64,000 nt of DNA from Candidatus Babelota bacterium (GTDB lineage Bacteria; Babelota; Babeliae; Babelales; JACPOV01), in the NCBI GenBank assembly GCA_016191325.1, contig JACPOV010000008.1, positions 578,900 through 642,899 of the forward strand. Reading direction: 5' to 3'. A program made the translations under genes and the position numbers. The notes under the pieces were generated by a model, which searched no databases, was not told where the DNA came from, and saw nothing but the letters and a program-made list of their open reading frames with translations. Below are positions 11,114 to 60,014 of the stretch, piece by piece (position 1 is the stretch's first letter; the number at the start of each line of letters is the position of its first letter).

Positions 11114-11282
11114 GCCCGCACCCTTCGATACAATTTCTCGCTTTGCTCTAAATCACTCAGGGCGAGCGGAGGGTTAATTTTGGGTAAAGTGACTTTTTTC
11201 AATCCGCTCGTGGTGAGTGTTTTGCGTAACTCAATTGAGCAAAATGTATCGAACCATGGCGGACAAGTCGAGGGATGCGCGG
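11114..11282. repeat. long palindromic MITE-like element (family C, copy 1)
   Basis: The left arm gcccgcacccttcgatacaattt...aaatcactcagggcgagcgg and right arm ccgctcgtggtgagtgtttt...aaaatgtatcgaa..cgagggatgcgcgg are inverted repeats. Both arms match the arms of the element at 23301-23537. Confidence 0.65.
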
Positions 11283-15037: not shown

Positions 15038-16702
15038 CTACAGTCCAATAAGCGAAACTACCTTTTTGATCAATTCCTGTATCCCTGGATCAAAGCTAAG
15101 GAAAACATCAATTGCCTCTTTACTCTTTGTTATATTAACCTGTTCCCCTTTGTGTTGCGCAATAAACGCCAAAAATGCTGCTTGAGGCAAAGTAATTTTT
15201 AGTGCAAGATCCTGTAATAAAAATAATGGTTTAAGATCGTAGAAATAAACTACTTTGCTATCCGGTAGATCGATTGATGCAAGAACAAGAGTCTCCCCTT
15301 TTGCATCAATGGCACCTACTTGAACACGATCCTTGAGTGGAAGTGAAGTAACAAGCTTACCTGTTGTTAAATCGTTTAACGAGATGCTGCCCGAAATTCT
15401 ACGAAAACCACCCTCTTGCGATAAAGCAACGACGAATTTATTTAACGGATCGAAGACGATTTGAGAAACTTCTCCAGATATGAAAAATGGGGCTTTATAG
15501 CTTTTATCAGCTTCCATGTCATAAATCGTAATGCTATTTTGATCTTTTTTTGTATCGATAATGGTAGCAAACTGTCCGTTATTACTTAATCTAACATTGC
15601 CTATTTCTTTTTTGGCAAGAAGCATTTTTTCAATTTTTTCGCCGGTTTTAAGATTAACTTGAATAATTTCCCCGACCGCATTAGCAATGCTTAAATATTT
15701 ATCATCATCAGAAAATGCCAGCGTTGAAAGAACACTGCCATTCGTTTTTAGCGAAACAGATATTGTTTCAGTTTTGGCAGTTGCGATCTCAAAAAGTATA
15801 ATCTCGTATCCCTTTTCATCATCAATGTTGCCGCCTACAGCAATTTTTTTATTATCATGAGAAAAACAAAGTCCCGTTGGATTAAATGACAAAGATTTTT
15901 CTGCGGTGAGCCCCGTCGGCTTCTTTAGTGACCATAATTCCAGTTTTTTATTTATTGTTCCCACAGCAAACCATAATCCGTCAGTGCTCAAAGCATATGA
16001 TATAATCCGGTTTCCTATTTTAATATCGACCCCATTTTTTGGGTCTTGAATAGTTTGAAAGCGGACTTTACCTAATGCTGACCCTTTATTAATCAAAACG
16101 ACACTTTTTCCTGACGCGCTGAAAGCAATCGTGTCAAAATCAGCTTGAACTTGTTGAGACGATATTCGCCCGCCAGACAACGAACTCTGTATAGCCTCTT
16201 GCTTAATAAGCGCCGCTGCTATTCGTTCTTGTACTGTTTGTGGCAACACAAAAGATTTAACTGCCAGCGGATCAGTTTTTGCACGCTCCGTGATTCGTTT
16301 AAGCGCTTCCTGAATCAACGCTTCATCAAGTTTATCTATCCCCAGAAAATCTACCACTGCAATGAGTTGCTCTATTTCTGCCGTTGACTGCGTCGAAAGA
16401 AACTTCCTTAGCGCTGCCGAATTAGTTAAATATGGCAGAGCTTTAACCAATAAAGCAATTTGATATTTCGGTAATTTAGCCATGTTAAAAGAAGAAATAG
16501 TGTCAAGATTAAGCTTTTCAAATTCGACGATCTTATTCAATGCCTCTGAGTTGCGCATAATACTTTTAAAACTATCGCGAGCAATAGCAATCGGCCCATT
16601 TGCAGTGTTGATGGTAACTTTATCGCTTGATGATGGCGGTAATTCCATAGAAACCGCTTGTATAACTATCATGAGCGCACAAATAATACTTAATCTTTTC
16701 AT
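15038..16702 (-). CDS. exported Skp1/BTB(POZ)-fold plus beta-propeller repeat protein
   Basis: Signal-like MKRLSIICALMIVIQAVS. The N-terminal domain ends IEQLIAVVDFLGIDKLDEALIQEALKRI (BTB/Skp1 helix pattern), and WD40/PD40-like repeats follow (e.g. LAFSDDDKYLSIANAVGEIIQVNL). It is a paralog of 27286-29013. Confidence 0.6.
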   Translation of the reverse strand: MKRLSIICALMIVIQAVSMELPPSSSDKVTINTANGPIAIARDSFKSIMRNSEALNKIVEFEKLNLDTISSFNMAKLPKYQIALLVKALPYLTNSAALRKFLSTQSTAEIEQLIAVVDFLGIDKLDEALIQEALKRITERAKTDPLAVKSFVLPQTVQERIAAALIKQEAIQSSLSGGRISSQQVQADFDTIAFSASGKSVVLINKGSALGKVRFQTIQDPKNGVDIKIGNRIISYALSTDGLWFAVGTINKKLELWSLKKPTGLTAEKSLSFNPTGLCFSHDNKKIAVGGNIDDEKGYEIILFEIATAKTETISVSLKTNGSVLSTLAFSDDDKYLSIANAVGEIIQVNLKTGEKIEKMLLAKKEIGNVRLSNNGQFATIIDTKKDQNSITIYDMEADKSYKAPFFISGEVSQIVFDPLNKFVVALSQEGGFRRISGSISLNDLTTGKLVTSLPLKDRVQVGAIDAKGETLVLASIDLPDSKVVYFYDLKPLFLLQDLALKITLPQAAFLAFIAQHKGEQVNITKSKEAIDVFLSFDPGIQELIKKVVSLIGL

Positions 16703-17792: not shown

Positions 17793-18719
17793 ATGTCTCC
17801 AGAACAATTTAGAGAAAAAATAAAAGATTTTATTAGCTATCTAGAAGTTGAACGCAATCTTTCACTGCATACCGTACGCGCGTATCAAACCGATTTGGAA
17901 CGTTTTCTTACCTTTTGGAAAACTATTGAAAAGAATAGTGAGCAAGATATTCCGCTCAACCGAGCATTCGAGCGCTATTGCGTTGCCCTTTATCATGAAC
18001 AAATTGAAAAAAGTTCTATTGCACGAAAAATGTCGTGCATGAAATCGTTTATCGCTTTTTTAAAAACCATCGGAATCACGGTTCATCTTTCTATTACACG
18101 GCCACGACTCGATAAAAAACTGCCGCTCTTTTTGAGCGTTGATGAAATATTTCATGTACTTGATACGATCAAAATTGATGATCTGCCAACGCGCAAACCG
18201 TATCGCGATAAAGCGGTGTTTGAACTTCTTTATGCGACCGGCATTCGATGCTCAGAACTAGTGCATATTAAAATTTCAGACATCGATATTGAACAAAAAA
18301 CGATCAGAATTTACGGAAAAGGAAGAAAAGAGCGCATTGCGCTTTTTGGTCAAAAAGCAAAAGATATAATGCTTTCGTATCTTGCCAATGAACGGCCACA
18401 AGCGACAAGCCAAAGTGATCGTCTTTTTTTAAATAACCGAAACGAACCGCTCACCACTCGCTCGGTGCAGCGCATTATTGAAATGTTTCGTGCATTTTTG
18501 AAAATAAAAAAAGAGATAACGCCGCACAAGCTCCGCCATTCATTTGCGACGCATTTGCTCAATCAAGGCGTTGATTTACGAACGCTGCAAGAACTTCTTG
18601 GGCATAAAACACTCGCGAGCACCGAAAAATATACGCACGTGAGCACTGAGCAGCTGAGTGAAATGTGCGATACGATGCATCCTCTCAACACCATGATCAA
18701 ATCTGATGATAATGATTGA
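17793..18719 (+). CDS. tyrosine recombinase, XerC/XerD family
   Basis: N-terminal core-binding pattern FISYLEVERNLSLHTVRAYQTDLERF. Catalytic residues are present in ATGIRCSEL, HKLRHSFATHLL and LGHKTLASTEKYTH. Confidence 0.9.
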   Translation: MSPEQFREKIKDFISYLEVERNLSLHTVRAYQTDLERFLTFWKTIEKNSEQDIPLNRAFERYCVALYHEQIEKSSIARKMSCMKSFIAFLKTIGITVHLSITRPRLDKKLPLFLSVDEIFHVLDTIKIDDLPTRKPYRDKAVFELLYATGIRCSELVHIKISDIDIEQKTIRIYGKGRKERIALFGQKAKDIMLSYLANERPQATSQSDRLFLNNRNEPLTTRSVQRIIEMFRAFLKIKKEITPHKLRHSFATHLLNQGVDLRTLQELLGHKTLASTEKYTHVSTEQLSEMCDTMHPLNTMIKSDDND

Positions 18720-20502: not shown

Positions 20503-20805
20503 CTACTTTCCAAAAACTTTTTTATACCAATAGGCTCTTTTATTATCAAAAAACCACCGCTTATTATCTTCGGTCAAAAATCTCTTTAATTGCGCCATAT
20601 CAACTTTATATCTTCGAAATAAAGCTATAATGTCCCGCAATTCTAAATCTTCTAATCTATCAGAAATTAAATCGAGATAGAGTTCATCTCGCGCTCCCTC
20701 AAAACTTTGGATGCATTTAATTTTTTTGATCCATTCAAAAAAAGCATCTTCATCATGCATAGAACCAAACTTAACGCCTTTGCAAACCAAATAATTATTG
20801 TCCAT
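20503..20805 (-). CDS. small hypothetical protein, tandem paralog 1
   Basis: 100 aa. The shared motif DEDAFFEWIKKIKCIQSFEG...LELRDIIALFRRYKVDMAQLKRF aligns with the neighbour 20893-21153. Confidence 0.5.
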   Translation of the reverse strand: MDNNYLVCKGVKFGSMHDEDAFFEWIKKIKCIQSFEGARDELYLDLISDRLEDLELRDIIALFRRYKVDMAQLKRFLTEDNKRWFFDNKRAYWYKKVFGK

Positions 20806-20892: not shown

Positions 20893-21153
20893 TTAGAACC
20901 AATCTTTGTTGTTCTCGTTTTTAAATACTACTAATTGCTTTTCATCAAATTTATAGCGGTTAAAAATGCCGAATAACTCTATTAATTCACTATCTTCGAT
21001 TTTGTTAGATATAATATGAACGTGGAGAGCATTTCCCACCCCTTTATAATCTTCTATGCAATTTATTTTTTTTAACCAATTAAAAAACAAATCTTCATCA
21101 TTAGTTGTATAAAAACGTAATGGTGAACAAACTAAAGTGATTTTTTTTGTCAT
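20893..21153 (-). CDS. small hypothetical protein, tandem paralog 2
   Basis: 86 aa. DEDLFFNWLKKINCIEDYKG...SELIELFGIFNRYKFDEKQLVVF aligns with 20503-20805. Confidence 0.5.
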   Translation of the reverse strand: MTKKITLVCSPLRFYTTNDEDLFFNWLKKINCIEDYKGVGNALHVHIISNKIEDSELIELFGIFNRYKFDEKQLVVFKNENNKDWF

Positions 21154-22398: not shown

Positions 22399-23280
22399 TC
22401 AATCTTCCTGAGCAAGATAAAGCATCAATTGCCGATAAATTTCAGTATTGCCGGCAAGATAGGATCGATAATCGGCCGTAGGAACCGTCCCGTGGTAGGT
22501 TGTTACCGTGCCGCCCGCTTCCTGAATAAGGAGCATGCCGGCCGCAATATCCCACCAGCCAAGCTCCTGAAAGAATAATCCATCAGCACGGCCGCAAGCC
22601 ACGTACGCTTGTTCAAGCGCAATAGCTCCCAAGTGCCGGTATGCAAAAATTTTGGGTGCCAGTGCGTCTGCGGTTTTCAAGGTATCGGAATGTGCCTTGC
22701 CTTTGGTATAAGGAAGCCCGAAAAAAACCATCGCTTTATCGAGCGTTTGTACCCTGCTAACCGCCACCGGCTTTCCATTGAGGGTGGTTGGCTTGCCCTG
22801 CTGCGCCACAAAAAGCTCATCGCGCAACGGATCATAAACAATCCCAAGGATTGGATGCCCTTGAGAAGTCAAAGCAACTGAGACACAAAAATAAGGAATT
22901 TGGCGTGCAAAATTGGTAGTCCCATCAAGTGGATCGATCACCCAACAAAGTTCATTATTACCACTTTTTCCCCCAGGGCTAAAGCCCTCTTCTTTATCCC
23001 CAAAAAACGCCGGGCTTGAATCATTCACAGAATGAGAGAATTGTTTTTCGGGGGCCCCAGGGCTAAAGCCCTCTTCTTCTGCAAGCCATGATGCTCGCGG
23101 AAGAATCTTTTCCAAAGCAGCAATAAGAAACTTTTCAGATGCCATATCGGCATTCGTTGCAAATCCGGCTTGATCTTTATCATGAATTTCAAGTTTTTTG
23201 CCGTAAAACGTGAGCAATAGTTGCCCCGCTTGCTTTACTGCGGCTCTAGTTTCATCTATTACTCTTTGAGCAATCTCCAT
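22399..23280 (-). CDS. suhB: inositol monophosphatase family protein (SuhB-like) with in-frame insertion
   Basis: Metal-binding EEEG and WVIDPLDGTTNF motifs, plus the C-terminal WDIAAG motif. It carries an extra 28 codons between the EE and DPxDGT motifs. Confidence 0.85.
   Translation of the reverse strand: MEIAQRVIDETRAAVKQAGQLLLTFYGKKLEIHDKDQAGFATNADMASEKFLIAALEKILPRASWLAEEEGFSPGAPEKQFSHSVNDSSPAFFGDKEEGFSPGGKSGNNELCWVIDPLDGTTNFARQIPYFCVSVALTSQGHPILGIVYDPLRDELFVAQQGKPTTLNGKPVAVSRVQTLDKAMVFFGLPYTKGKAHSDTLKTADALAPKIFAYRHLGAIALEQAYVACGRADGLFFQELGWWDIAAGMLLIQEAGGTVTTYHGTVPTADYRSYLAGNTEIYRQLMLYLAQED
22971..23078. repeat. 24-nt direct repeat pair (84-nt period) inside the IMPase CDS
   Basis: ccccagggctaaagccctcttctt occurs identically at 22971-22994 and 23055-23078. 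Each copy contains the palindrome agggct-aa-agccct and encodes EEGFSPG on the minus strand. Confidence 0.85.
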
Positions 23281-23300
23281 CTACTCTCTCACTTTTTCTT

Positions 23301-23537
23301 GTGCGCCATCCCTCGATACAATTTTTAACTCCGTTAAAAATCACTCGGGACGAGCGCGAGATTAGTTTTTTATATTTCTTGGATTTAAAATAAAATTTCT
23401 CAAATAGCCCTCGCGATTCCTTTTATACGATGCCAGCACTCGCAAAAATCATTACAAAAAAATTGCAATCCAGCGCTCGTCCCGAGTGTTTTGCGAAACT
23501 ATAAAAATAGTGAGCAAAATGTATCGAGGGATAGCGG
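23301..23537. repeat. long palindromic MITE-like element (family C, copy 2)
   Basis: The left arm gtgcgccatccctcgatacaattt...aaaatcactcgggacgagcgc (23301-23360) is inverted relative to the right arm gcgctcgtcccgagtgtttt...aaaatgtatcgagggatagcgg (23471-23537), around an AT-rich core of about 110 bp. Confidence 0.7.
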
Positions 23538-23552
23538 ACATAGTTACAATTT

Positions 23553-23592: not shown

Positions 23593-26247
23593 TCAGCTTT
23601 CCTGGCCCGTTAAGCGGAAATTGCTGCGCGGATCGATCCCAAGAAGCTCATACACTTCATCAGCATAAAGAACCTCTTTTTCAAGAAGCGCAATCGCCAA
23701 TTTATCAAGTTTTTCTCGGTGATTTTGCAGCAGTTCTTTAACCGCTACCATCGAAGTGCTCAGAATTTTTTCAACAAGCTCATCAATGCGCTCTGCAGTT
23801 TTTTCAGAATAACGATATTCGCGATTTTGATCGTAGACCACTGGGCCCATTTCGTCGGTCATACCGCCGCATACCATTCTGCGAACGAGAGAAGTTGCCT
23901 TTCTGAAATCATCCCCAGCGCCGGGAGTCATCACACCACACGCAAGCAATTCGGCAGCGCGCCCACCAAGCGCAACATACACGAACGCCATAAATCTATC
24001 TTTTGTCTCAAGCATTACATCCCGCTCAGGCAAGAAGTGAGTCACACCCAATGCGCCGCCGCGTGGAACGATCGTTACTTTATCAAGTGGATCGCCATGC
24101 TCCGGCATCAGAATGCGTACCAATGCATGCCCCGCTTCATGAAATGCGGTAATTTTTTTCTCTTGATCGCTCATTACGCGAGATTCCATTTTTTGGCCAA
24201 GCGTTACATGATCACGCGCTGCTTCAAAGTCGTGCATTGTTACAACGCTTTCATCCGCTCGTTTTGCCGCCATTAATGCAGCTTCATTGACTAAATTTGC
24301 CAGATCGGCGCCAGAAAATCCTGTAGTGCTTCGCGCAATACGAGATGCATCAATGGTGCCGTCAGTTTTAACGCGCGCAAGATGAACTTTAAGAATCTCT
24401 TCACGGCTTTTGAGCGTCGGATACGGAACGTGAATTTGTTTATCGAATCTTCCTGGGCGAACGAGAGCTGGATCGAGAACATCGGAACGGTTTGTTGCCG
24501 CAATAAGAATAACCGAAGAATCGATCGTATTGAATCCATCAAGTTCTGTAAGCAATTGATTTAACGTTTGATTTCGTTCTTCGCTACCGCCGCTGCCATT
24601 ATCGCTTCGGCGTGAACCGATCGAATCAAGCTCATCAATAAAAATGATGCTTGGCATATGTTTTCGAGCCTGCGTAAAAAGATCACGCACACGAGATGCA
24701 CCAACGCCAACATACATTTCTACAAAATCAGAAGCGCTGACGCTAAAGAATGGACAATTTGCTTCCCCTGCTACCGCTTTAGCAAGCAACGTTTTGCCAT
24801 TACCTGGATCGCCTACTAAAAGCACACCTCGCGGAATGCGGGCGCCAAGGCGACGATATTTTTCACCATTGCGCAGAAAATCTACAACGTCTTTCAATTC
24901 TTGTTTTGCTTCTGGCATACCTGCAACATCTGCAAAAGTAACCTTGATCTGCGAAGGAACAAACATTTTTACGTTGCCGCTTCCCTTGCTCATCGGATTA
25001 ACTGATGCGTTGCCGCCAGTTTTTTTCTCATGGACTATTTTTTTGTGAGCAGCTTTTAAATCGGCCATACCCACTTCAACTTTGCCCTCTTTTGAAGCTT
25101 GCAATGCTGCTTTATTGATGAGATCTCCCAAATCTGCGCCAGAAAACCCGGCCGTTTCGCGTGCAAGATCTTTTAAATCAACATCGGAACCCATTTTTAC
25201 TTTTTGTGAGTGAATCGCTAAAATTTGTTCGCGTGCCGTTTCATCTGGATAATCGACTGTTACCATGCGGTCAAAACGACCAGGTCGCAAGAGCGCTTTA
25301 TCCAAAACCTCAGGCATATTCGTAGCCGCGACAACGATAACGGCAGAATTATATGATTCAAAGCCATCCATCTCAATCAGAAGTTGATTAAGCGTTTGTT
25401 CACGTTCATCATGCCCACCACCAAATCCGCTTCCGCGTTGGCGCCCAATTGCGTCGATTTCATCAATAAAAACAATCGCTGGCGAATGACGGCGTACACG
25501 CTCAAAAAGATCGCGAACGCGCGCAGCGCCTACGCCCACAAATACTTCAATAAAATCGGAACCGGAAACGCTAAAGAATGGGCAATGCGCTTCGCCTGCC
25601 ATCGCTTTTGCAAGAAGTGTTTTACCATTACCTGGGTCGCCCACTAAAAGTACGCCACGAGGAATGCGTGCCCCAAGACGGCGATATTTTTCTGGGTTTT
25701 TAAGAAAATCTACAACGTCTTTCAGCGCCTCTTTGGCATCGGTAGCGCCCGCAACTGCGGAAAAGTTTTCATTGATCATAGAAGGGGTAAACATTTTTGC
25801 TTTACTTTTACCCATAGAAAAAATGCCGCCGCTACTATTATTTGAGCCGCGTGCTTGGCGCATGAAATACCATGCTGCAAGCGGTACTATCAATAACATG
25901 GCGATCCACATCATGTACCACATATTGTACGGATTGGAGTTTGCAGCTACGGAAAATTCTACATTGTGGTTTTTGAGCACATCCCAATTATTAGTATTTT
26001 CAGGAACGGTTACTTCAAAACGAGAGCCATCGTTCATGACGCCAAAAACATCTTGGCCAGAAACATGAACCGCTTTAACGTTTCCTTCTTCCACTGCTTT
26101 TAAATAGTTTGAATAACTAATTCCTTTAACCTGACGCGTATAATCGGTCAGCTTTGTCAGCAATCCCAAACAGGCAACAAATAATATAACAATAAAGACA
26201 AGATTTCGAGGCCCTTTGGATAATTGATTGAATCGCATTTTTTTCAT
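23593..26247 (-). CDS. ftsH: FtsH-family membrane protease with two tandem AAA+ modules and one M41 peptidase domain
   Basis: TM / FtsH-ext / TM N-terminus. There are two Walker A sites (GDPGNGKT x2), two Walker B sites ([16 protein letters not shown]), two ATN...RPGRFD SRH regions, then a single HEAGHAL. The track ORF extends to 26391, but ATG 26247 (MKKMRFNQ) is the likelier start. Confidence 0.9.
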
Positions 26248-26617
26248 AAGCGCTATCCTATCGGTCTTATATTTTTTAACGTGTCGCGTTACCGGCTCTT
26301 TCGCTTCCAACCCCAGAGCCATTTTTCCTGACTGAATTAATTTACGGCCTAAGGGCCGTTCTATTATGTCCAAAGTATACAATATAATCAAAAAACTGTC
26401 GATAGATTGCCCTAAAATCCGCGTTTTAGGGCGTGAACAAACATGAGTTGTTGTTCTTCAGTAATTTTTAAAGAATAATCGCACCCAATACGCAATCGTT
26501 ATCCCAAGGGCTAACAGAGAGGATAGTTTTTGTGCCGTACAACGATTGTCTATTTTCATTGTCTGCCCTGTATACATTGTGTTAAAATTTCTATTATGAA
26601 TATTTTATTTACAAGCC

Positions 26618-27285: not shown

Positions 27286-29013
27286 ATGAGCAAAAAGCTG
27301 TTTATTATTTTACTGGCATGTGCCACCACGCTTCATACCAATTATGCGATGGAACTCATTGGTATGGATATCAAACCGCACATAAGTTTGGATGTAATCG
27401 ATGGTACATTCGAAATCAATGAATCAGATTATGGTCTATTGGAAAATTATTCGATCACCATGAAAGACTATCAAGAAGATACCAAAGAAGAGTTGAAAAA
27501 GTTCAAGTTAACGAAAAACTCATTAACTACTCTCATTAATTATTTAAGTATGCTCGATTCAAACAAAGAAAAACTCCTCAATCAGCTTAAGACAGAAAAA
27601 AATGAAGATTTAAATATAGGACTTCAAGCAGCCGATTATCTTAATATTCCTGATTTGGTTACTGCGATTACTGATGAATTAGCGACTCGCTTCAATTCAG
27701 CGCAATTTATTTCGCAATTCAAAAAAAATCCTGCGATTCTCAAAAACTTAAAACTTTATCCTCAAATCAACAATGCTATAGCAAAAAAAATTCTCGAAAA
27801 AAATTCTCCTGTAGTGAGCTTTCTGAAATCACAATTGAAGTTTCCAATTATTAATAATGCTTCGATAACGGACACTGTAAATAAAGTTTTTGCAATTAAC
27901 CCTAAAAATACCATTATTGCTTTTGGTGCGCCAAAAGTTACTGAATCAAAAACAATAAAAGCAATTGTTAACCTGTATGACATCGTCAGCGGCACATTAA
28001 TTCATACTATTGATGATGATTCATTTGGCAATTCGATTTATGGACTTTCATTCAGCCCCGATGGAACTATGCTTGGCATAGCTGATCGAGCTTCTTTTTA
28101 TCTCTATAATGCAACTACCTATAAGCCTATTAAACAATTCGATTCTGATGCATTTACTGTCGCGTTCACAAGCGATAGTAAAAATGTTGCATTTAGTGAT
28201 GGGGCGACGGTAAATATTTGGGACTTTGAGCAGCAAAATATTATTTTTACAGATGCTCCCGTTCAAGAAGGTATACTTACAAACCTTATATTTAGCCCAA
28301 ACAATGAATTCCTTGCCGGATCCTTCGGCCATACATTTATTAACTGGAATCTTGGAATCATAAATCCTTTAATCTTTCCTAGCTCAGCCCTTGGACACAA
28401 TATTGCTTATACTAATGCGTCCGAATCTAACCTTAACTCCGATAGAGGCCCTTTCATCTTTACACCAGATAGCTCAGAGATCCTTGTCGGGTTGAAAAAT
28501 GGAGCAATAAATATCCACAGTTTATTCATAGGTTTCAAATCAAAAACATCATTAACTGGTCGCGAAGGCATTAATTCTCTCTGTTTTAGTTCAGATCAAT
28601 CGTTACTAGCAAGTGCAAATGATTTTGGCGTTGATATATTCGATTGGCAAACAAAAAAACAACTTTTTTCTCTCTCTTCAGATCCCGTTTGGTTTGCAAC
28701 GTTTAATAAAATAAATACAAAACTTATTACTGTCGGGGCGGGACAAAAAATCCAAATAACTATATACGATTTATCACCAATTTCTGGGCTACTAAACTAT
28801 CTTAATAACCTTCAAACAGAGCAAATTATTCTTTTACTTTTAATATATAAATATGGATCCGCAATTATTAACGAAAACCAGCAGCTAAAAACGCTGTTTG
28901 AAAGCTTGCCACAAAGTATGAAAACGCTGTTTACTATGCCAACAGCACCCCAAGGTGAATCATTTATGAAAGCTTGGTGGGGTTATGCAAGAAACTATTT
29001 CATGAAAAAATAA
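27286..29013 (+). CDS. exported Skp1/BTB(POZ)-fold plus beta-propeller repeat protein
   Basis: Signal-like [41 protein letters not shown]...[28 protein letters not shown] parallels the Skp1 segments [13 protein letters not shown]... and [25 protein letters not shown]. WD40/PD40-like repeats follow ([36 protein letters not shown]). Confidence 0.6.
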   Translation: [575 protein letters not shown]

Positions 29014-36054: not shown

Positions 36055-36081
36055 CGAGAAACTTTATAATCCGTAAAAAAA

Positions 36082-36134
36082 CTGGCCGCGCCAGGCGTAG
36101 CTTGCCGAGGCGGAAGCCCCGGATAAGCGAAGAC
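36082..36134 (-). repeat. family A conserved tRNA 3'-trailer element (copy A2)
   Basis: Immediately 3' of tRNA-Ala on its strand. It aligns over about 50 nt with 45817-45868 and contains the stem-loop CCGGGGC-UUCC-GCCUCGG, a short hairpin and a U7 run. Confidence 0.6.
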
Positions 36135-36210
36135 TGGTGGAGCTGACCGGGGTCGAACCGGTGGCCTCATGAATGCCATCCATGCGCTCTACCAACTGAG
36201 CTACAGCCCC
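36135..36210 (-). tRNA. tRNA-Ala (anticodon GGC), CCA encoded
   Basis: 76-nt cloverleaf folded by hand: acceptor GGGGCTG/CAGCTCC with the G3:U70 Ala identity pair, anticodon loop AT-GGC-AT, T-loop GGTTCGACC and a terminal ACCA. Confidence 0.9.
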
Positions 36211-41945: not shown

Positions 41946-43202
41946 TTAATCCAGTTTAACAACATCCTCTTTTTCAATTTTCTTCAAAAAGCCTTTATTC
42001 CACAAATTTGAAATTGAAGCAGAAATAATTTCAGCACTTCGGGGCGAATAACCACCTGAAAGAGTCATGCATATGGGAACTTTATGCTTTAGTGCTTGCG
42101 CAAATACGAATTCATCCCGATCTATAATACCTTGCTTAGTTAATTTCATTCTACCAAGCCTGTCTTCTTCAAATGGATCAGTTCCGGCGTTATAAAAAAT
42201 AAGATCTGGTTTGGTGTTATGTATTTCTTGAAATTCATCTAACGCTTGAGGTAGAGCATTCTTTACACTGTTAATATATTTATCACTGCAATCCTGGCAG
42301 TTTCCAGAATGGTTCCCTTTCTTGCAATAAATATCTTTCGAGATCAATTTCTTATGTATCTTTTCTCGAAGTTCGCGACTATCAGTCGCATAGGGGAAAT
42401 TTTTTTCATTATAACAATCAAAAAAATATATATTTTTATCATTTTCTAAACACGACTCAACGCCATCGCCTTGATGCGCATCAAGATCAATATAGAGAAC
42501 TTTCAAATCTTTTTTTTCTTTTTCCCGCAGCTTTTGAAGCGCAAGAGGAATATCTGCATACACACAAAAACCGCTTCCATTATCAGCTTTTGCATGATGA
42601 TATCCACCAGAAAGATTTATTGCAGCTCCGTGCTTAAATGCTAATTGAGTAGCGAGGATTGTTCCTTGTGTTGCATACCGCATTGGTGAAAGTAGATAAC
42701 GTTGTAAAAGAAAATTAGGAATCTTGGCAACTGGAACTTCTACGATTTTTTGAATGGCTTTTGACGAACGTAAGGAATCTAAATATTCCTTTGAGTGAAC
42801 TTTAAGAAGACTATCTTTGGAAACTTCTGATGCTGGCTCATAAAAATGTAAACCTGAAATGTTCCATTCTTTTTTTAATTCATCCGCAACATGTCCATAT
42901 TTTTTTGAATCAAATGGATGAAGTTTTTCTACGCCAAAAAAACCAATATTATAGTTTTCATGATATACGAGAGGAACTTTACTGCCATCGTAACACCAAC
43001 GATCTTTTAATTTCCGTGCAGCATCCCATCCCTTTTTTGCTACGACCGCTGTACCAACAGCAACGGCACACTTCGTTTTTAAATCCCAGCCAAGCGGGTT
43101 TAGCCAATCCATAGCTTTTGTTTGGCTCGAAGAAAAACCGAATGCTATTTGCAATGCAATAAGCAAAAATTTTCGGCAAAAAGGAGAAAATCCTTTGATC
43201 AT
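41946..43202 (-). CDS. class IV (HDAC11-like) histone deacetylase-family deacylase with N-terminal signal/anchor
   Basis: VPLVYHENYNIGFFGVEKLHPFDSKKYG, LSGGYHHAKADNGSGFCVYADI, IDLDAHQGDG and FYNAGTDPFEEDRLG track human HDAC11 motifs almost position by position. The N-terminal segment FLLIALQIAFGFSSS is hydrophobic. Confidence 0.85.
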   Translation of the reverse strand: MIKGFSPFCRKFLLIALQIAFGFSSSQTKAMDWLNPLGWDLKTKCAVAVGTAVVAKKGWDAARKLKDRWCYDGSKVPLVYHENYNIGFFGVEKLHPFDSKKYGHVADELKKEWNISGLHFYEPASEVSKDSLLKVHSKEYLDSLRSSKAIQKIVEVPVAKIPNFLLQRYLLSPMRYATQGTILATQLAFKHGAAINLSGGYHHAKADNGSGFCVYADIPLALQKLREKEKKDLKVLYIDLDAHQGDGVESCLENDKNIYFFDCYNEKNFPYATDSRELREKIHKKLISKDIYCKKGNHSGNCQDCSDKYINSVKNALPQALDEFQEIHNTKPDLIFYNAGTDPFEEDRLGRMKLTKQGIIDRDEFVFAQALKHKVPICMTLSGGYSPRSAEIISASISNLWNKGFLKKIEKEDVVKLD

Positions 43203-45669: not shown

Positions 45670-45816
45670 AAATACGCTCAGGATTATCAGAAATTTTCAA
45701 TCTAATGGAAAGATAAAAGAATCTTATAAAAGCACTACTCCGCTCGCCTGCGAGCTACGAAGGGCATACTTCGCCTCTACTGGCTTTTGATTATTTATTA
45801 CAATCCATTAAAAAAA

Positions 45817-45868
45817 TGGCCGTGCCAGGCGTAGTTTGCCGAGCCGGAAGGCCCGGATAAACGTAGAC
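45817..45868 (-). repeat. family A conserved tRNA 3'-trailer element (copy A3)
   Basis: Immediately 3' of tRNA-Ser. It aligns with 36082-36134, has the stem-loop CCGGGCC-UUCC-GGCUCGG with a compensatory G:C to C:G swap, and ends in a U7 run. Confidence 0.6.
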
Positions 45869-45960
45869 TGGCGGAGAGAGAGGGATTCGAACCCTCGATA
45901 CCCTTTTCAGAGTATACATGATTTCCAATCATGCTCTTTCGACCACTCAGACATCTCTCC
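45869..45960 (-). tRNA. tRNA-Ser (anticodon GGA), CCA encoded
   Basis: 92-nt class II tRNA: acceptor GGAGAGA/TCTCTCC, anticodon stem CATGA/TCATG with loop TT-GGA-AA, long variable arm ATACTC-TGAAAA-GGGTAT, T-arm GAGGG-TTCGAAT-CCCTC and GCCA end. Confidence 0.9.
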
Positions 45961-47047: not shown

Positions 47048-48430
47048 CTATTCTTCTTGCCCTATAACTTCGTTAGCGGCAATAGCCTTGGTATAGCGAC
47101 GACCTAGCAACGCTGCAGTGATAACCCAGAGCAAAATGATCGAGCCGAATAACCCACTTGCAAAACCTGCGCCCGCACCCATGAAAACGGTCAGCATATT
47201 AACGCCAGAGCCGCTGCCCCGAGCCAATTTTGCTCCAAATGCATCAATCCAAGACTTCGATTTGAATTTAATCTCTTTTACCGTTGGGATGTATAAACTT
47301 TCCCTCACTGGCTGAGCAAACGCATAGTTAAACGATTTAACAAGCACGTATACCAATATGTTTGAGCTGAGAATGAAGTACCAAAGCAATCCACCAGTAA
47401 CTATAGGAATTAAAATAAGGCATCGTTCCTCGCCAAGCCAACGCAATAATGCGCGCGTACCGATAACTGAAATCAAAAATCCTATAAAATGAAGCATGAA
47501 CGCTTGCTCAAAAAGCTTAAAGCTAAAATCGGAAACGTTTGTGGCTGATGATTCAATAACGCCTAAGCGATGATATCCCAAAATGGTATTTACCATTTCA
47601 TAGAAGAAAAGCATCCCGAAAATACCAAAAACATACGGTTGCTTGATGAGCATAGAAAGACCAGTAAGTAATCCCACCTTACCACTCTCTTCCTCTTTTT
47701 TCTCATGGTCTTTTTCAAATTGGTAAACAGCTTCGTAACCATGTAAATAGCGACCAGGAACTTTTTTCATGAGAAAATAAATAACAACTGGCACAAGAAT
47801 TACCATACATGAAAAGAAACAGAGTAACAGTTGGTGATTAACCACATCGGTGAACATACGTTTGCCATCAGCAAAATGCCAACCTAAAAGCCACCACGCA
47901 AATCCTGCACTCAACATACCACCAATTTTTGACCCCGAAACCATCCAAGCATAATTATTTTTAGCAGTTTCCGGACTGTTTACAGAGTTAGCAAATGCCC
48001 AGAAAAGACTGACGACAAACGGCGCATAGCCTTCAACAAAAAAGTAGAAAAACCAGCCAAACAGCCTATTTGGACTTGCATCTGTATTTTGCAAACCAAT
48101 AAGTGAATCCCCTAAAACAGATGCACAAATAAACCCAACGATTCCATAGAAAGCTGCGTAAACATAGAGCAATTGATAGCGGCGCAAGCGATCTACCAGG
48201 TAGGCATAGAAAAAAATTGCAGGAATAAGTAAGAACGTTTCGAGAATTCGGGCAACAGGAACATATTCGCGCCCTACAATTGCCACAAAAATCGAATCGC
48301 GAAGCTCTTTAATAAGTGTATAAGAACCAATAACTAAGAAAAATGACAAGCTCAACAGCAGAAATTTTAATCGCTCGTGCTTATCTTGCCCTACCGCAGC
48401 CATAAAGCTCTGCGCATATCGCATAATCAT
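47048..48430 (-). CDS. ATP/ADP translocase (TLC/NTT nucleotide transporter family), paralog 2
   Basis: 12-TM profile. The N-terminal ERLKFLLLSLSFFLVIGSYTLIKELRDSIFVAIVG follows the TLC pattern (E.KKF......F....NY..LR..KD..VV). Confidence 0.8.
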   Translation of the reverse strand: MIMRYAQSFMAAVGQDKHERLKFLLLSLSFFLVIGSYTLIKELRDSIFVAIVGREYVPVARILETFLLIPAIFFYAYLVDRLRRYQLLYVYAAFYGIVGFICASVLGDSLIGLQNTDASPNRLFGWFFYFFVEGYAPFVVSLFWAFANSVNSPETAKNNYAWMVSGSKIGGMLSAGFAWWLLGWHFADGKRMFTDVVNHQLLLCFFSCMVILVPVVIYFLMKKVPGRYLHGYEAVYQFEKDHEKKEEESGKVGLLTGLSMLIKQPYVFGIFGMLFFYEMVNTILGYHRLGVIESSATNVSDFSFKLFEQAFMLHFIGFLISVIGTRALLRWLGEERCLILIPIVTGGLLWYFILSSNILVYVLVKSFNYAFAQPVRESLYIPTVKEIKFKSKSWIDAFGAKLARGSGSGVNMLTVFMGAGAGFASGLFGSIILLWVITAALLGRRYTKAIAANEVIGQEE

Positions 48431-48503
48431 TCAACGCCCCTATGAATTTTATAAAAGAACACTTTTCTCATTTCACCCAGATGCTGCTTCAAGCGGTATT
48501 TCT

Positions 48504-48535
48504 TGGGGGTCCCAGGAACTCTTGTTTACTGGGGG
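48504..48535. repeat. family B GC-rich hairpin repeat (copy B4, inverted, shorter)
   Basis: The reverse complement ccccagtaaacaagagttcctgggaccccc fits the ccccaN..ggg(a)cccc frame. It lies between the two transporter genes. Confidence 0.4.
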
Positions 48536-48537
48536 TA

Positions 48538-48582
48538 AAAAAAGGCCTTCTAAACTCTGGTGAACTTAGAAGGCCTTTTTCA
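48538..48582 (-). terminator. intrinsic terminator between the two NTT genes
   Basis: 12-bp stem aaggccttctaa / ttagaaggcctt. On the minus strand it is followed by ttttttt. Confidence 0.65.
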
Positions 48583-48608
48583 AATTACATACACACCATC
48601 AACTGCAC

Positions 48609-50018
48609 TTAGACAACAACACTCTTTGCATCAACCGCTTTTTTGAAGGTACGGCCGAGGTAAATAGTAATTGGAATCCAGAAGGCAATAATACCTAGTG
48701 ACGCAAAAGTACACATCATAATGAATTGATCAAGGCCAGCTATAGCGCCATATTTTTCAATGAACGTTTTACGCCACAAGTTAACACTTGAGCCAAGTGC
48801 CTTAGATCCACGAGAACCATACATTTCAATGAACGCCTGCGATTTATATTTCGCATCTTTGGTCGTTGGAATGTAAAGTTGCTTCATAGATGGTTGGTTC
48901 AACGCATAGTTGACCGCTTTTGAGAATACCATGATCCAGAAGAGCACACTTACGATTGGATACGCTTTAAACGTAAGAACCGCGACTGCAACCAAAATAG
49001 GAAGCAATGCCAATGACGCACCAAGGCCAAGTACACGTTGGATCTTATTAATGCCAAGCGCAATGCTCAACATAGAAACTACACCAACCCATGAACCATA
49101 AGCAGCCAAATACTTTGTCAGCTCATGTTGAACAGGAAACTGAGCAGTTGCCAATGTCTTAAAGTTGAAATCTAATACGGTAACAATTACTTCGTAGAAC
49201 GAGATAATTGCAAAGATTGCAAGCAAGTAACCTGAAGAGAAGATAAGGCGCAATCCTTCAAAGAACCCAGGTTCTGAATCGTGCTTCTTATCGCCTTTTC
49301 CATGGTAACCAACAAGTTGTTCTTTAGGAATTGAGGCCATGAAAATCTTTACAAGTAGCATAATCAATCCCATAACAATTGCAGCACCTGCAACTGCGCC
49401 AGAGTGGATCAATGCGCTATGAGCTGCAGCGCCAGCTGGCAATTCGCCTTCAGCTGTCAACTCAAAATTAGCGAATTTATGCATAATGAAATAAAGGGCA
49501 AGCGGACCGAAAATATTTCCAAGTTGTCCGCCGAAAGCTACGACCGGATAACCACGTTCAGCAGAATCGGGCTGCGTGGTGTCCGCTGTGAATGCCCAGA
49601 AAAGAGCAACAATCAACGAACCAAAGCTCTCAACATACACGTACCATGCCCATCCCCACAGATTATCAGGACGTGCACCAGCACTTAATCCGACAGTCGA
49701 ATGGTTCATAAGAAGTGCAAATACGATCGCAAGAACACCGTAAATGGTGCACAGAGCATAGAACATTTGCTGACGAGGGAACATATCAACTAATTTTGAA
49801 TAGATCAAAACAAGTGGAAATACTACGACCAATGAAAGCATTTTTGCTCGTGGAATGTAGTCAACGCCTACTACCGCTTGAAAAATAGAGTCTTTGAGCG
49901 GACGCAAGAACCAGTACACACCGATCACCAACCCAAAGATCAAGGATAGAAGGCCAAATTTTTTCAGCTCCCCTTCTTGAAAATCTCCCCACCACCACCG
50001 AGCAATTTTGGTAAGCAT
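48609..50018 (-). CDS. ATP/ADP translocase (TLC/NTT nucleotide transporter family), paralog 1
   Basis: GELKKFGLLSLIFGLVIGVYWFLRPLKDSIFQAVVG N-terminus, a 12-TM profile and conserved blocks shared with 47048-48430 (e.g. FWAFxA, LYIPT.K..K(Y/F)KS(Q/K)..I(E/D)..G). Confidence 0.85.
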   Translation of the reverse strand: MLTKIARWWWGDFQEGELKKFGLLSLIFGLVIGVYWFLRPLKDSIFQAVVGVDYIPRAKMLSLVVVFPLVLIYSKLVDMFPRQQMFYALCTIYGVLAIVFALLMNHSTVGLSAGARPDNLWGWAWYVYVESFGSLIVALFWAFTADTTQPDSAERGYPVVAFGGQLGNIFGPLALYFIMHKFANFELTAEGELPAGAAAHSALIHSGAVAGAAIVMGLIMLLVKIFMASIPKEQLVGYHGKGDKKHDSEPGFFEGLRLIFSSGYLLAIFAIISFYEVIVTVLDFNFKTLATAQFPVQHELTKYLAAYGSWVGVVSMLSIALGINKIQRVLGLGASLALLPILVAVAVLTFKAYPIVSVLFWIMVFSKAVNYALNQPSMKQLYIPTTKDAKYKSQAFIEMYGSRGSKALGSSVNLWRKTFIEKYGAIAGLDQFIMMCTFASLGIIAFWIPITIYLGRTFKKAVDAKSVVV

Positions 50019-58088: not shown

Positions 58089-60014
58089 TCAACCACCAAT
58101 TTCAAGTTCTTGCTTGAACACAATATCGTTTACTATCTGTTTGATCTCGTGCTTGTACGCTTTGACAATAAGTTCCGATACGCCGGTAAGCTGATTAAAT
58201 TGCTCAATGTTGTACGCGAAATTGAACGTGCCGCAAAAATCACTCTCAACACATTTTTCCATAGAAAAATTTGAAAGCTGATGTTTCTCAATCAATTCAC
58301 GTAGCTCAGGAATTGTGGACGCTTTTTTAATAAATTCTGGATTGGGGAAAAAGTGGAAATAAACAATAAGCGGGGAAATGTCGTCTTCCGGCGCTGTGCG
58401 ATAAACTTGAAACAGATCGCCACTGATGAGAGGAACTTTTTCATATTTTACTTTATAAACACGTTCAATATCGCTCAACATTTTAGTAAGTTCGCCTCCA
58501 GCTATCGCATCGCTTGAGGCATCTCCAATAAATATAAGTTTAACATTTCGATCTTGCCTCAATAGTGGCCGGATTGGAATGTTATAATCAATACCTGCAT
58601 CAACAAACGTAATTTGCTCACGAGCTTGGAGCCACGAACTTCCTTTATCGTATCCTTTGAACGGATTGCGCACTTGGCCCGGTGCAATTCTTCTTGTGCC
58701 TATGCGCGAATCGCTCAATCCATTAATAACTATTTTAGTAATACCAACGGCAATCGCATCGAAGCTGATGGTTTTGAAAGGATTTTCTATCCCTCCAAAA
58801 ATAATATTACTCGCTTCTATTTCTTCCGCTTGCGTTACAGGCCCGGCGCTCGTGTTAATAATACTGCGCATATCTTGCAAGTTAATCGTATAAGCTGAAC
58901 CGAAAATCCCCATCTGAAAACCAAAACTTTGCTCCGGAGCAAAATCGACCGATTTACCATTTTCAAATCGGCGACCGAACGCAAAAGAAGGAATCGCTAA
59001 TCCAGTTTCTAAATTTCGCACTTCTTCTGGTGTAAATTCATACCAGTTATATTGATATAATCCTTCATTATCTTTTGCCATAGAAACGGCAGTATAAAGC
59101 GGCCAAGGATTATTTCCTTGTTGCACACTAAACCATTGGTTTGAAAGATGCTGGCGCTGCTGCATATCGCCAAAGTCAGAAAGCAATGCATGCGCAAGAA
59201 GTGCGCCATATAAATCAACAGAGCTCACCACTTGCCCAAATACAACCTTGGGAAAAATAACATCATTTGCAAGGCGCAAGAAACTCAACGAATTTCTATT
59301 TCCGCTTCCTTTTAAATCGAAGGTATCCGCCTTAATTTTATCACGCAGCTTTTGGTTAAATTCATCGATCGAAACAAACTTATTATTATTTGGCTGTTGC
59401 ATTAAAGTCCATGGGCCGATATACCACGTTGATCCTGAAAGTGCAGAAACATAGGTGAGTGCATCAAGCAACCCCAAGTCTTGCAACCCTTTCATAAAAC
59501 CTGCGGTGATCACCATCGATCGATAACCGCCACCGCTAAAAGCGCACGCTATTTTAGGCACGGCGTCGATCGGAATTGAATAAGAACCAAGAAAATTCTG
59601 AAGAGCCGTTTGAACTTTTCTTGTACGTTTTACTAAAAATTCGCCTTCTAGTGATTGCCCCGGCTTGAGAATTTTATTTTCATTGGCGACTTGTGCAACA
59701 CTATTTTTATAAGGGCTTTTTGATGACAGTAATTGAATAACGTAATCTTTTACAGCAGGCAATCCATATTTTGTGCCCAACTCATAAAAACTAATCTCTT
59801 GGATTTTCTTTTTTGCAAAGTTAACCGATACGGTTAACATATCTTCGAGCCGCGCATCTCTTAATTCTTTCTCAATCTCTTGAGAAAGTTCCTTAACGGT
59901 TTCGTTTAAACCTTGTTGGATCGATTTGCGTTCTGTTATTTCCGACATGCCAGCAAGAATAACAAGCCCAATTAAAATAGCAGTGCGCGCTCCATACCCT
60001 ATGTTCTTACTCAT
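58089..60014 (-). CDS. membrane-anchored cPLA2-type (PLA2_B family) phospholipase/lysophospholipase
   Basis: CAFSGGGYRSMVITAGFMKGL and TYVSALSGSTWY match the eukaryotic cPLA2 motifs SGGGFRAM and TYVAGLSGSTWY. The Asp motif FVDAGIDYNIPIRPLL compares with LVDSGLTFNLPYP. An N-terminal hydrophobic anchor is present. Confidence 0.8.
   Translation of the reverse strand: MSKNIGYGARTAILIGLVILAGMSEITERKSIQQGLNETVKELSQEIEKELRDARLEDMLTVSVNFAKKKIQEISFYELGTKYGLPAVKDYVIQLLSSKSPYKNSVAQVANENKILKPGQSLEGEFLVKRTRKVQTALQNFLGSYSIPIDAVPKIACAFSGGGYRSMVITAGFMKGLQDLGLLDALTYVSALSGSTWYIGPWTLMQQPNNNKFVSIDEFNQKLRDKIKADTFDLKGSGNRNSLSFLRLANDVIFPKVVFGQVVSSVDLYGALLAHALLSDFGDMQQRQHLSNQWFSVQQGNNPWPLYTAVSMAKDNEGLYQYNWYEFTPEEVRNLETGLAIPSFAFGRRFENGKSVDFAPEQSFGFQMGIFGSAYTINLQDMRSIINTSAGPVTQAEEIEASNIIFGGIENPFKTISFDAIAVGITKIVINGLSDSRIGTRRIAPGQVRNPFKGYDKGSSWLQAREQITFVDAGIDYNIPIRPLLRQDRNVKLIFIGDASSDAIAGGELTKMLSDIERVYKVKYEKVPLISGDLFQVYRTAPEDDISPLIVYFHFFPNPEFIKKASTIPELRELIEKHQLSNFSMEKCVESDFCGTFNFAYNIEQFNQLTGVSELIVKAYKHEIKQIVNDIVFKQELEIGG

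Follow-up and report, generated by a model that had tools for sequence, protein, structure and literature searches.

A single-copy in-frame segment between 24-nt direct repeats, probably a young insertion, in an IMPase/SuhB-family gene of a Dependentiae bacterium

Introduction

What placed two identical copies of a 24-mer, 84 nt apart, inside a gene of the IMPase/SuhB family, and what is the sequence that lies between them? We addressed this question in a 64,000-nt stretch of DNA, here called the window, for which an earlier note had likened the arrangement to the in-frame insertion of Rickettsia palindromic elements (RPEs). We describe the layout of the locus, compare the gene with its homologs and with solved structures, and weigh the explanations for the added sequence.

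Results

The 24-mer CCCCAGGGCTAAAGCCCTCTTCTT occurs at 22971-22994 and again at 23055-23078 within the coding sequence, exactly 84 nt apart and with 0 mismatches, as had been reported. We found no third copy in the 64-kb window at up to 3 mismatches, and 0 of 100 shuffles of the window gave a match. No other exact direct repeat of at least 16 nt with copies up to 600 nt apart exists in the whole window. Both copies hold the palindrome AGGGCT-AA-AGCCCT that the earlier note had pointed out, although it is small. The features of the locus are as follows.

22399 to 23280, minus strand: host gene of the IMPase/SuhB family, an intact ORF of 293 aa that has the EE, WVIDPLDGT and WWDIAAG motifs
23055 to 23078, minus strand: repeat copy 1 (5' on the coding strand), AAGAAGAGGGCTTTAGCCCTGGGG, encoding E69-E70-G71-F-S-P-G75
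22995 to 23054, minus strand: spacer of 60 nt, an orphan sequence, encoding APEKQFSHSVNDSSPAFFGDK
22971 to 22994, minus strand: repeat copy 2 (3' on the coding strand), the identical 24-mer, encoding E97-E98-G99-F-S-P-G103
22972 to 23070, minus strand: 33 codons without counterpart in homologs (G71 to G103 or F72 to G104), from alignments, the split phmmer match and pLDDT
22975 to 22988, no strand: palindrome AGGGCT-AA-AGCCCT of repeat copy 2, with its twin at 23059-23072 and a stem of only 5 to 6 bp

Translation of the coding strand gave the protein order ...WLAE-EEGFSPG-APEKQFSHSVNDSSPAFFGDK-EEGFSPG-GKSGNNELCWVIDPLDGT, with the duplicated EEGFSPG and the layout described before. The corresponding DNA reads GCA GAA GAA GAG GGC TTT AGC CCT GGG, then the 60 nt, then GAA GAG GGC TTT AGC CCT GGG GGA AAA. 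Repeat copy 1 keeps the native left-hand context of the gene (WLAE-EE) and repeat copy 2 the native right-hand context (-GKSGNNELCWVIDP), which is the signature of a target duplication and not of element termini. The EE-G codons of the gene itself account for 10 of the 24 repeated bases (AAGAAGAGGG), so the repeat is better read as a duplicated target than as the end of an element. The spacer has a modest internal hairpin (CCCCGAAAAA...TTTTTTGGGG and TCATTC-TGT-GAATGA), and its ends form a 10-bp imperfect inverted repeat. It starts CCCCC-GAAAAA, and the gene after repeat copy 2 starts GAAAAA (GGGG/CCCCC-GAAAAA versus GGGG/GAAAAA). This junction hints at extra complexity.

Judged from its sequence and a structural model, the host gene looks functional. 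The protein matched Pfam Inositol_P (PF00459) over residues 7 to 282 with an E value of 9.5e-55 (186 bits; cut-off, 27), and its best PDB matches by both phmmer and Foldseek were IMPase/SuhB structures. The residues E68/E69, D116-P-L-D119-G-T121 and W243-D244-I-A-A-G248 are present, and in 76 aligned sequences they vary little or not at all. An identical protein is on record at NCBI as MBI2775025.1, 'inositol monophosphatase [Candidatus Dependentiae bacterium]', encoded on a 1,236,520-bp contig. Its closest relatives have the same FtsH-IMPase-(L28)-S20 gene order, and because this order is common to both, we regard them as true orthologs. The nearest sequenced relatives show 57 to 66% protein identity.

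The segment is a lineage-specific insertion, as the earlier note had proposed, and lies between the EE motif and WVIDPLDGT, where that note had placed it; it is missing from 75 of 75 homologs, including syntenic ones, and from the solved SuhB/IMPase structures. The other sequences in the best 120 of 7744 homologs have lengths of 204 to 277 aa, versus 293 aa for the host protein. In an alignment of 76 sequences, LAEE..WVIDPLDG spans 55 aa here and 22 to 25 aa in each of the 75 nearest homologs, a surplus of 33 aa (99 nt). The proposal of 28 added residues was therefore too low when set against these 75 sequences. At the corresponding empty site, one syntenic relative reads GCA GAA GAA TCA GGC AAA AAT GGG.

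We compared two shortened forms, one without 84 nt (protein, EEGFSPGGKSGN; DNA junction, ...GCAG-24mer-GAAAAAGT) and one without 99 nt (protein, EEEGKSGN). The phmmer match of the full protein to PDB chains breaks at the insert (query residues 6 to 71 and 104 to 286 against 5zhh residues 6 to 73 and 73 to 257), and deleting either 84 or 99 nt gave one uninterrupted alignment to SuhB/IMPase structures. Removal of 84 nt leaves 27 aa in LAEE..WVIDPLDG, 2 above any of the 75 homologs, and removal of 99 nt leaves 22 aa, the modal length. The 84-nt-deleted form is nevertheless within the length range of the wider IMPase/SuhB family and aligned to Pseudomonas aeruginosa SuhB with a single 1-residue gap. 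Escherichia coli SuhB has 10 residues between EESG and W, the number given in the earlier note. The 99-nt-deleted form aligned slightly better than the 84-nt-deleted form to Nostoc IMPase and E. coli SuhB. The earlier claim that taking out one repeat and the spacer restores a canonical spacing thus holds for the wider family but not for the nearest homologs (27 versus 22 to 25 aa). By the same comparisons, the allele before the insertion may or may not have already carried GFSPG.

An AlphaFold2 model built with the 76-sequence alignment had a mean pLDDT of 89.5 and a pTM of 0.87, with a core above 95, and Foldseek superimposed it on SuhB/IMPase structures with a target-normalized TM score of about 0.9. 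Residues 74 to 101 and 103 to 105 had pLDDT values below 50 and no secondary structure, and they are flanked by strands at residues 64 to 67 and 111 to 119. The insert is of low complexity and rich in S, G, F and P. Across the family, the loop between EE and DPxDGT is variable in length, with 8 to 13 residues. The model predicts that the insert forms a disordered surface loop of 33 residues adjoining the metal site and that the catalytic core is intact, in line with the surface loop that the earlier note had proposed to check for (AlphaFold2 residues 74 to 105).

We searched for further copies as DNA in the 64-kb window, about 5% of the genome, and covered the other ~1.17 Mb via annotated proteins. 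Neither a mismatch search nor blastn-short gave a further copy of the 24-mer, the 14-nt palindrome or the 60-nt spacer in the window, and a six-frame chimeric peptide query of the segment against 5.8 billion proteins, including the NCBI proteome of the metagenome-assembled genome (MAG), returned the gene itself only. The additional copies that the earlier note had proposed to look for were thus found neither in the window nor among these proteins. An HMMER search of the insert peptide against 1.84 billion representatives gave no match beyond an FG-GAP-like 7x repeat protein, which we rejected as spurious (a summed score, with 44% identity over 17 aa).

The source of the 60 nt was sought in several collections. 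Phage and plasmid collections gave no blastn match to the insert, and three 20-mers tiling the spacer had 0 matches in viral contigs. A metagenome scan with one spacer 20-mer found two identities of 20 to 22 nt with unrelated flanks, a count expected by chance. The hairpin array of viral contig L004 was tried as a wider relative and rejected; Smith-Waterman comparison against shuffles showed nothing beyond the preselected 20-mer. Scores of the spacer against the flanks of the gene on both strands, and against the 24-mer as a degenerate third copy, were within those of shuffles. Rfam gave nothing over the window at the gathering threshold or over 22850-23200 at E values up to 5, and Tandem Repeats Finder made no report at the repeat locus. 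A foreign composition of the insert was also rejected; its GC content (0.49 to 0.52 versus 0.47 for the host gene) and its codon usage (mean ln RSCU of 0.07 versus 0.09) resemble those of the host gene. A scan for the 18-mer core in a genome collection that lacks the source genome, and so has no bearing on copy number in the source, returned 95 stretches, 0 of them from Dependentiae. The same 18-mer hairpin lies within multicopy REP-like elements of other phyla. The literature that we searched held no paper that mentions run SRR12113392 or palindromic insertions in Dependentiae.

The genome has a palindromic family of its own, with two copies in the window, which serves as an internal positive control.

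23300 to 23540: palindromic family copy 1, about 240 nt, with nested 25- to 26-nt inverted repeats (fold z = -9.05)
about 11115 to 11265: palindromic family copy 2 (fold z = -3.6)

Copy 1 lies 20 nt upstream of the IMPase gene, and the IMPase-FtsH intergenic region measures 313 nt here versus 0 to 61 nt in relatives. The insert has no sequence similarity to this family. The fold energy of the 108-nt segment of repeats and spacer gave z scores of -1.38 as DNA and -1.46 as RNA, and 17 to 19 of 200 shuffles folded equally well. A terminator role of the palindromes in the repeats was considered and rejected, because the minimal consensus is present only on the plus strand (antisense), the stems have 5 bp, and there is no gene to terminate. 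Among 40 ORFs of the window we found no gene for a transposase, RAYT or Cas protein, and the only recombinase is of the Xer type (17793-18719).

Discussion

We favor, with rather more confidence than doubt, the view that this gene of an uncultivated bacterium bears a real in-frame insertion, young in evolutionary terms and present in one copy, which is made up of 60 nt of orphan sequence and a 24-nt duplication of the gene itself, and that it arose as a neutral accident in one event. That event would have been an accident of replication or repair, most likely a template switch. The nascent strand would have departed from the gene after ...CCCTGGGG, used another site as template for about 60 nt, and then reannealed 24 nt upstream of its exit point, giving repeat, filler and repeat. 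We infer a template switch with repriming 24 nt upstream as the most economical reading of this layout; our searches gave no donor for the 60 nt, which keeps the switch itself at that level. The insert would have no function of its own and would be tolerated as an in-frame surface loop, and its perfect 24-nt repeats would make it prone to precise loss by slippage.

Several features sit less easily with this reading. The surplus over close relatives is 99 nt and not 84 nt, so a single simple event does not explain everything; the extra GFSPG (15 nt, which hold the palindrome) may have been in the preinsertion allele already, or the event may have been a compound one. The 24-nt flanking duplication is also unusually long, which counts against a spontaneous event. 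The inverted repeat formed by the spacer ends and the junction described above are further points against it. Ordinary loop indels resemble the insertion in affecting a length-variable loop, in frame, with predicted disorder and an untouched core. However, most of them are tandem duplications of adjacent sequence, whereas here the duplication covers just 24 of 84 nt, the other 60 nt being orphan, and both the length and the perfection of the flanking repeat are unusual.

The two repeat copies show 0 differences over 24 positions, which bounds their divergence at K ≤ 0.125 per site if all positions are neutral and at K ≤ 0.37 if about 8 are. Set against the 57 to 66% identity of the nearest sequenced relatives, this bound makes the event young relative to the split from them. 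The insertion is probably recent and neutral, as drawn from one genome and one sequencing run. If this reading is true, the locus is a natural example of one-step loop growth by duplication-plus-filler insertion in the reduced genome of an intracellular symbiont, where drift lets such events persist. It would serve as an anecdote for indel mechanisms and for the loop tolerance of IMPase/SuhB proteins, not as a new biological system. It would gain greater weight only if the full genome held more copies or an associated integrase, given the length of the 24-bp duplication.

It is unlikely that the segment is instead a mobile palindromic element of the RPE or MITE type, with its hairpins as structural signature and its direct repeat as a target-site duplication. 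Palindromes do lie inside the repeats, and the spacer carries a 6-bp hairpin between termini that form an imperfect inverted pair, but the fold z score of about -1.4 compares poorly with those of the real palindromic family (-9.05 and -3.6). That the genome hosts such a family, with a copy 20 nt upstream of the IMPase gene, would suit a mobile element; the insert does not resemble the family, and neither a transposase nor a RAYT gene was seen in the window. The insert keeps the reading frame, and just one of its six frames is free of stops, which would also suit an element; no related peptide appeared in any frame among 5.8e9 proteins, the MAG's annotated proteome included, and the 64 kb contain no further copy. 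The occurrence of the 18-mer hairpin in REP-like elements of other phyla also speaks for mobility, and the 10 of 24 repeated nucleotides that are host codons speak against it. Finally, 24 nt is far above the 2 to 14 bp of MITE and IS target duplications (PMC10969869).

Comparison with the known systems leads the same way. In the account of Ogata et al. 2000 given in PMC10969869, RPEs number 44 copies in Rickettsia conorii, fall into ten families, are about 150 bp long and encode a conserved peptide. The segment resembles them as a short in-frame insertion of palindromic sequence in a housekeeping gene that adds a peptide and keeps the fold. Unlike the multicopy RPEs with their conserved peptide, it is present once, measures 84 to 99 nt, has no related peptide, and combines an unexceptional fold energy with a 24-nt duplication of host codons. 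The likeness to RPEs drawn in the earlier note is therefore not supported, given a single copy in the window, no six-frame peptide kin and the weak fold. With MITEs and REP/REPIN sequences the segment shares a small size, short inverted spacer termini and flanking direct repeats, and its 18-mer hairpin core is part of the GTAG-CCCAGGGCTTTAGCCCTGGG hairpins of Hymenobacter, Chitinophaga and Acidobacteria. It differs from them in being single copy and inside a gene, with a palindrome that is a truncated, 14-nt version. As a MITE it would have only the imperfect 10-bp inverted repeat formed by the spacer termini and a flanking repeat of 24 nt, against transposase target duplications of 2 to 14 bp, and it shows no sequence relationship to the MITE-like family that the genome does have (23300-23540 and 11115-11265).

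Two older or more purposeful origins, a remnant of a period-84 tandem duplication (1.3 copies) and a functional loop kept by selection as an interaction surface near the active site or SuhB partner interface, are together quite doubtful. The arrangement formally amounts to 1.29 copies of an 84-nt period, but the spacer is dissimilar to the flanking gene on both strands, the duplication covers no more than 24 of the 84 nt, and Tandem Repeats Finder is silent at the locus. Retention of the insert in frame in a reduced 1.24-Mb genome, and the action of SuhB-type proteins in complexes, such as that for rrn antitermination (6tqn and 6ib8 are among the best matches), would fit a selected loop. Against this, the loop is predicted to be disordered, is of low complexity and rich in S, G, F and P, and is missing from 75 of 75 relatives, and the perfect identity of the repeats favors youth over long-term maintenance.

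To our knowledge, a 24-bp target duplication lies outside the range of known bacterial transposases (2 to 14 bp). There is a slim chance that an uncharacterized integration machinery of Dependentiae makes 24-bp staggered cuts at a small palindrome (Cas1/casposase-like, another integrase, or insertion primed by reverse transcription), or that in-frame mini-insertions form a family in this phylum of which the segment is the first one seen, with the remaining copies beyond the 64 kb and too diverged, or too intergenic, to surface in protein searches.

The idea that an integrase with widely staggered cuts acted at a palindromic target (off-target Cas1-Cas2 'neo-CRISPR' or casposase-like), with the 24-mer as pseudorepeat and the 60 nt as captured fragment, strikes us as highly improbable. 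The repeat-insert-repeat order, the exact 24-nt duplication of CRISPR-repeat-like length with its short palindrome, and an insert that is orphan, as many spacers are, all recall such a unit. Usual CRISPR spacers measure about 30 to 40 nt, and 60 nt is well outside this range; casposon target duplications are 14 to 15 bp. The 64 kb hold no CRISPR array or cas gene, the segment is a single unit inside a gene, and no foreign protospacer was found in the phage, plasmid, viral and metagenome collections. Off-target integration by Cas1-Cas2 does yield repeat-spacer-repeat units (Nivala et al. 2018, as cited in bioRxiv 10.1101/148544), but the complete genome of the cultivated Dependentiae member C. 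destructans was reported without CRISPR loci (PMC6561590).

The preferred reading, a genuine young insertion, presupposes that the sequence itself is real. In the independent Logan assembly (k=31) of run SRR12113392, a contig of 31.6 kb agrees with the window at every base over 6882 nt, both 24-mers included. The Logan graph consists of 31-mers seen at least 2 times, and all 31-mers within a contig file are distinct (PMC12424806). Since 31 exceeds 24, k-mers spanning flank, repeat and spacer exist in the reads, which excludes a misjoin or loop through the 24-mer. It is accordingly very unlikely indeed that the locus is an artefact of assembly, chimerism or sequencing, whether by looping through the short repeat or by the fusion of foreign reads at the 24-mer. 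The source is a MAG, and soil and groundwater phyla that co-occur with it commonly have the 18-mer core, so that foreign DNA sharing it could be in the sample, but two different assemblers gave the same sequence, and the insert is in frame and stop-free, with a chance of about 0.22 (stop-free) times 1/3 (length divisible by three). The whole 108-nt structure is also short enough to fit in one read.

A palindromic repeat family in the window

The region between the inositol monophosphatase (IMPase)/SuhB-family gene and the FtsH homolog is filled by the longer of two copies of a palindromic element.

23300-23540: MITE-like palindromic repeat, longer copy, IMPase-FtsH intergenic region; ~240 nt, with nested 25- to 26-nt inverted repeats
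11115-11265: MITE-like palindromic repeat, shorter second copy, ThrRS/HhH-GPD intergenic region; z = -3.6

The longer copy folds strongly as DNA (z = -9.05) and starts at a point 20 nt upstream of the start codon of the IMPase gene. In relatives, the IMPase-FtsH intergenic region measures 0 to 61 nt. Both copies contain the cores CCCTCGATACAATTT and ATCACTCGGGACGAGCGC, and an Rfam search of the family returned nothing beyond sub-threshold matches to generic hairpins.

Palindromes within the IMPase gene

Read on the + strand, opposite to the coding strand of the IMPase gene, both palindromes of its repeated 24-mer (22975-22988 and 23059-23072) match the minimal consensus for an intrinsic terminator, each being followed by CTTCTT(T). 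The stems are 5 bp, and the match is probably meaningless. Any antisense transcription through the gene would nonetheless meet the terminator-like action of both palindromes.

The hairpin core of the 24-mer, the 18-mer AGGGCTTTAGCCCTGGGG, occurs 95 times among the GTDB representatives (L005 to L099, the genome-collection stretches that match it) versus roughly 17 occurrences expected. Its main form is a REP-like CCCAGGGCTTTAGCCCTGGG hairpin behind a GTAG head, present in Hymenobacter, Chitinophaga, and Acidobacteria. Other settings are a ~90-nt composite cruciform repeat on >13 contigs of Phycisphaerales CSMAG_1437, a 158-nt tandem array (L081), and an intergenic hairpin array on a contig of an uncultivated virus (L004, 2810-3080).

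Neighboring genes

23593-26391 (-): FtsH homolog with two AAA+ modules, about 926 to 932 aa
20503-21306: cluster of small ORFs adjoining rpsT

The FtsH homolog contains a 339-nt internal duplication (24632-24970 versus 25460-25798; 72% identity). In the syntenic relative, the FtsH homolog is 886 aa long and likewise has two AAA domains; since the architecture is shared, it is ancestral in this clade. In the small-ORF cluster, we found a 46-nt direct repeat (20711-20756 versus 21056-21101; 80%) and a 20-nt direct repeat (20843 versus 21287), which suggest that the ORFs are tandem paralogous small genes. Pfam gave no matches for them.

Other features of the window

An ~80-nt module is present in two copies (36064-36142 and 45798-45876; 84 to 86% identity), which on the minus strand lie directly 3' of tRNA-Ala(GGC) and tRNA-Ser(GGA). 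The module contains a GC hairpin followed by CTGGC-GCG-GCCAG and a T7 run, a terminator-like arrangement, and is apparently a tRNA-trailer or terminator cassette present as a repeat.

Genes with eukaryote-like or host-interaction content are found at 5154-5810, 15038-16702, 27286-29013, 41946-43202, 47048-50018, and 58089-60014. Their products are a RING-finger protein, two WD40 beta-propeller proteins, a histone-deacetylase-domain protein, two tandem TLC ATP/ADP translocases, and a PLA2_B lysophospholipase, a gene set that is typical for intracellular Dependentiae.
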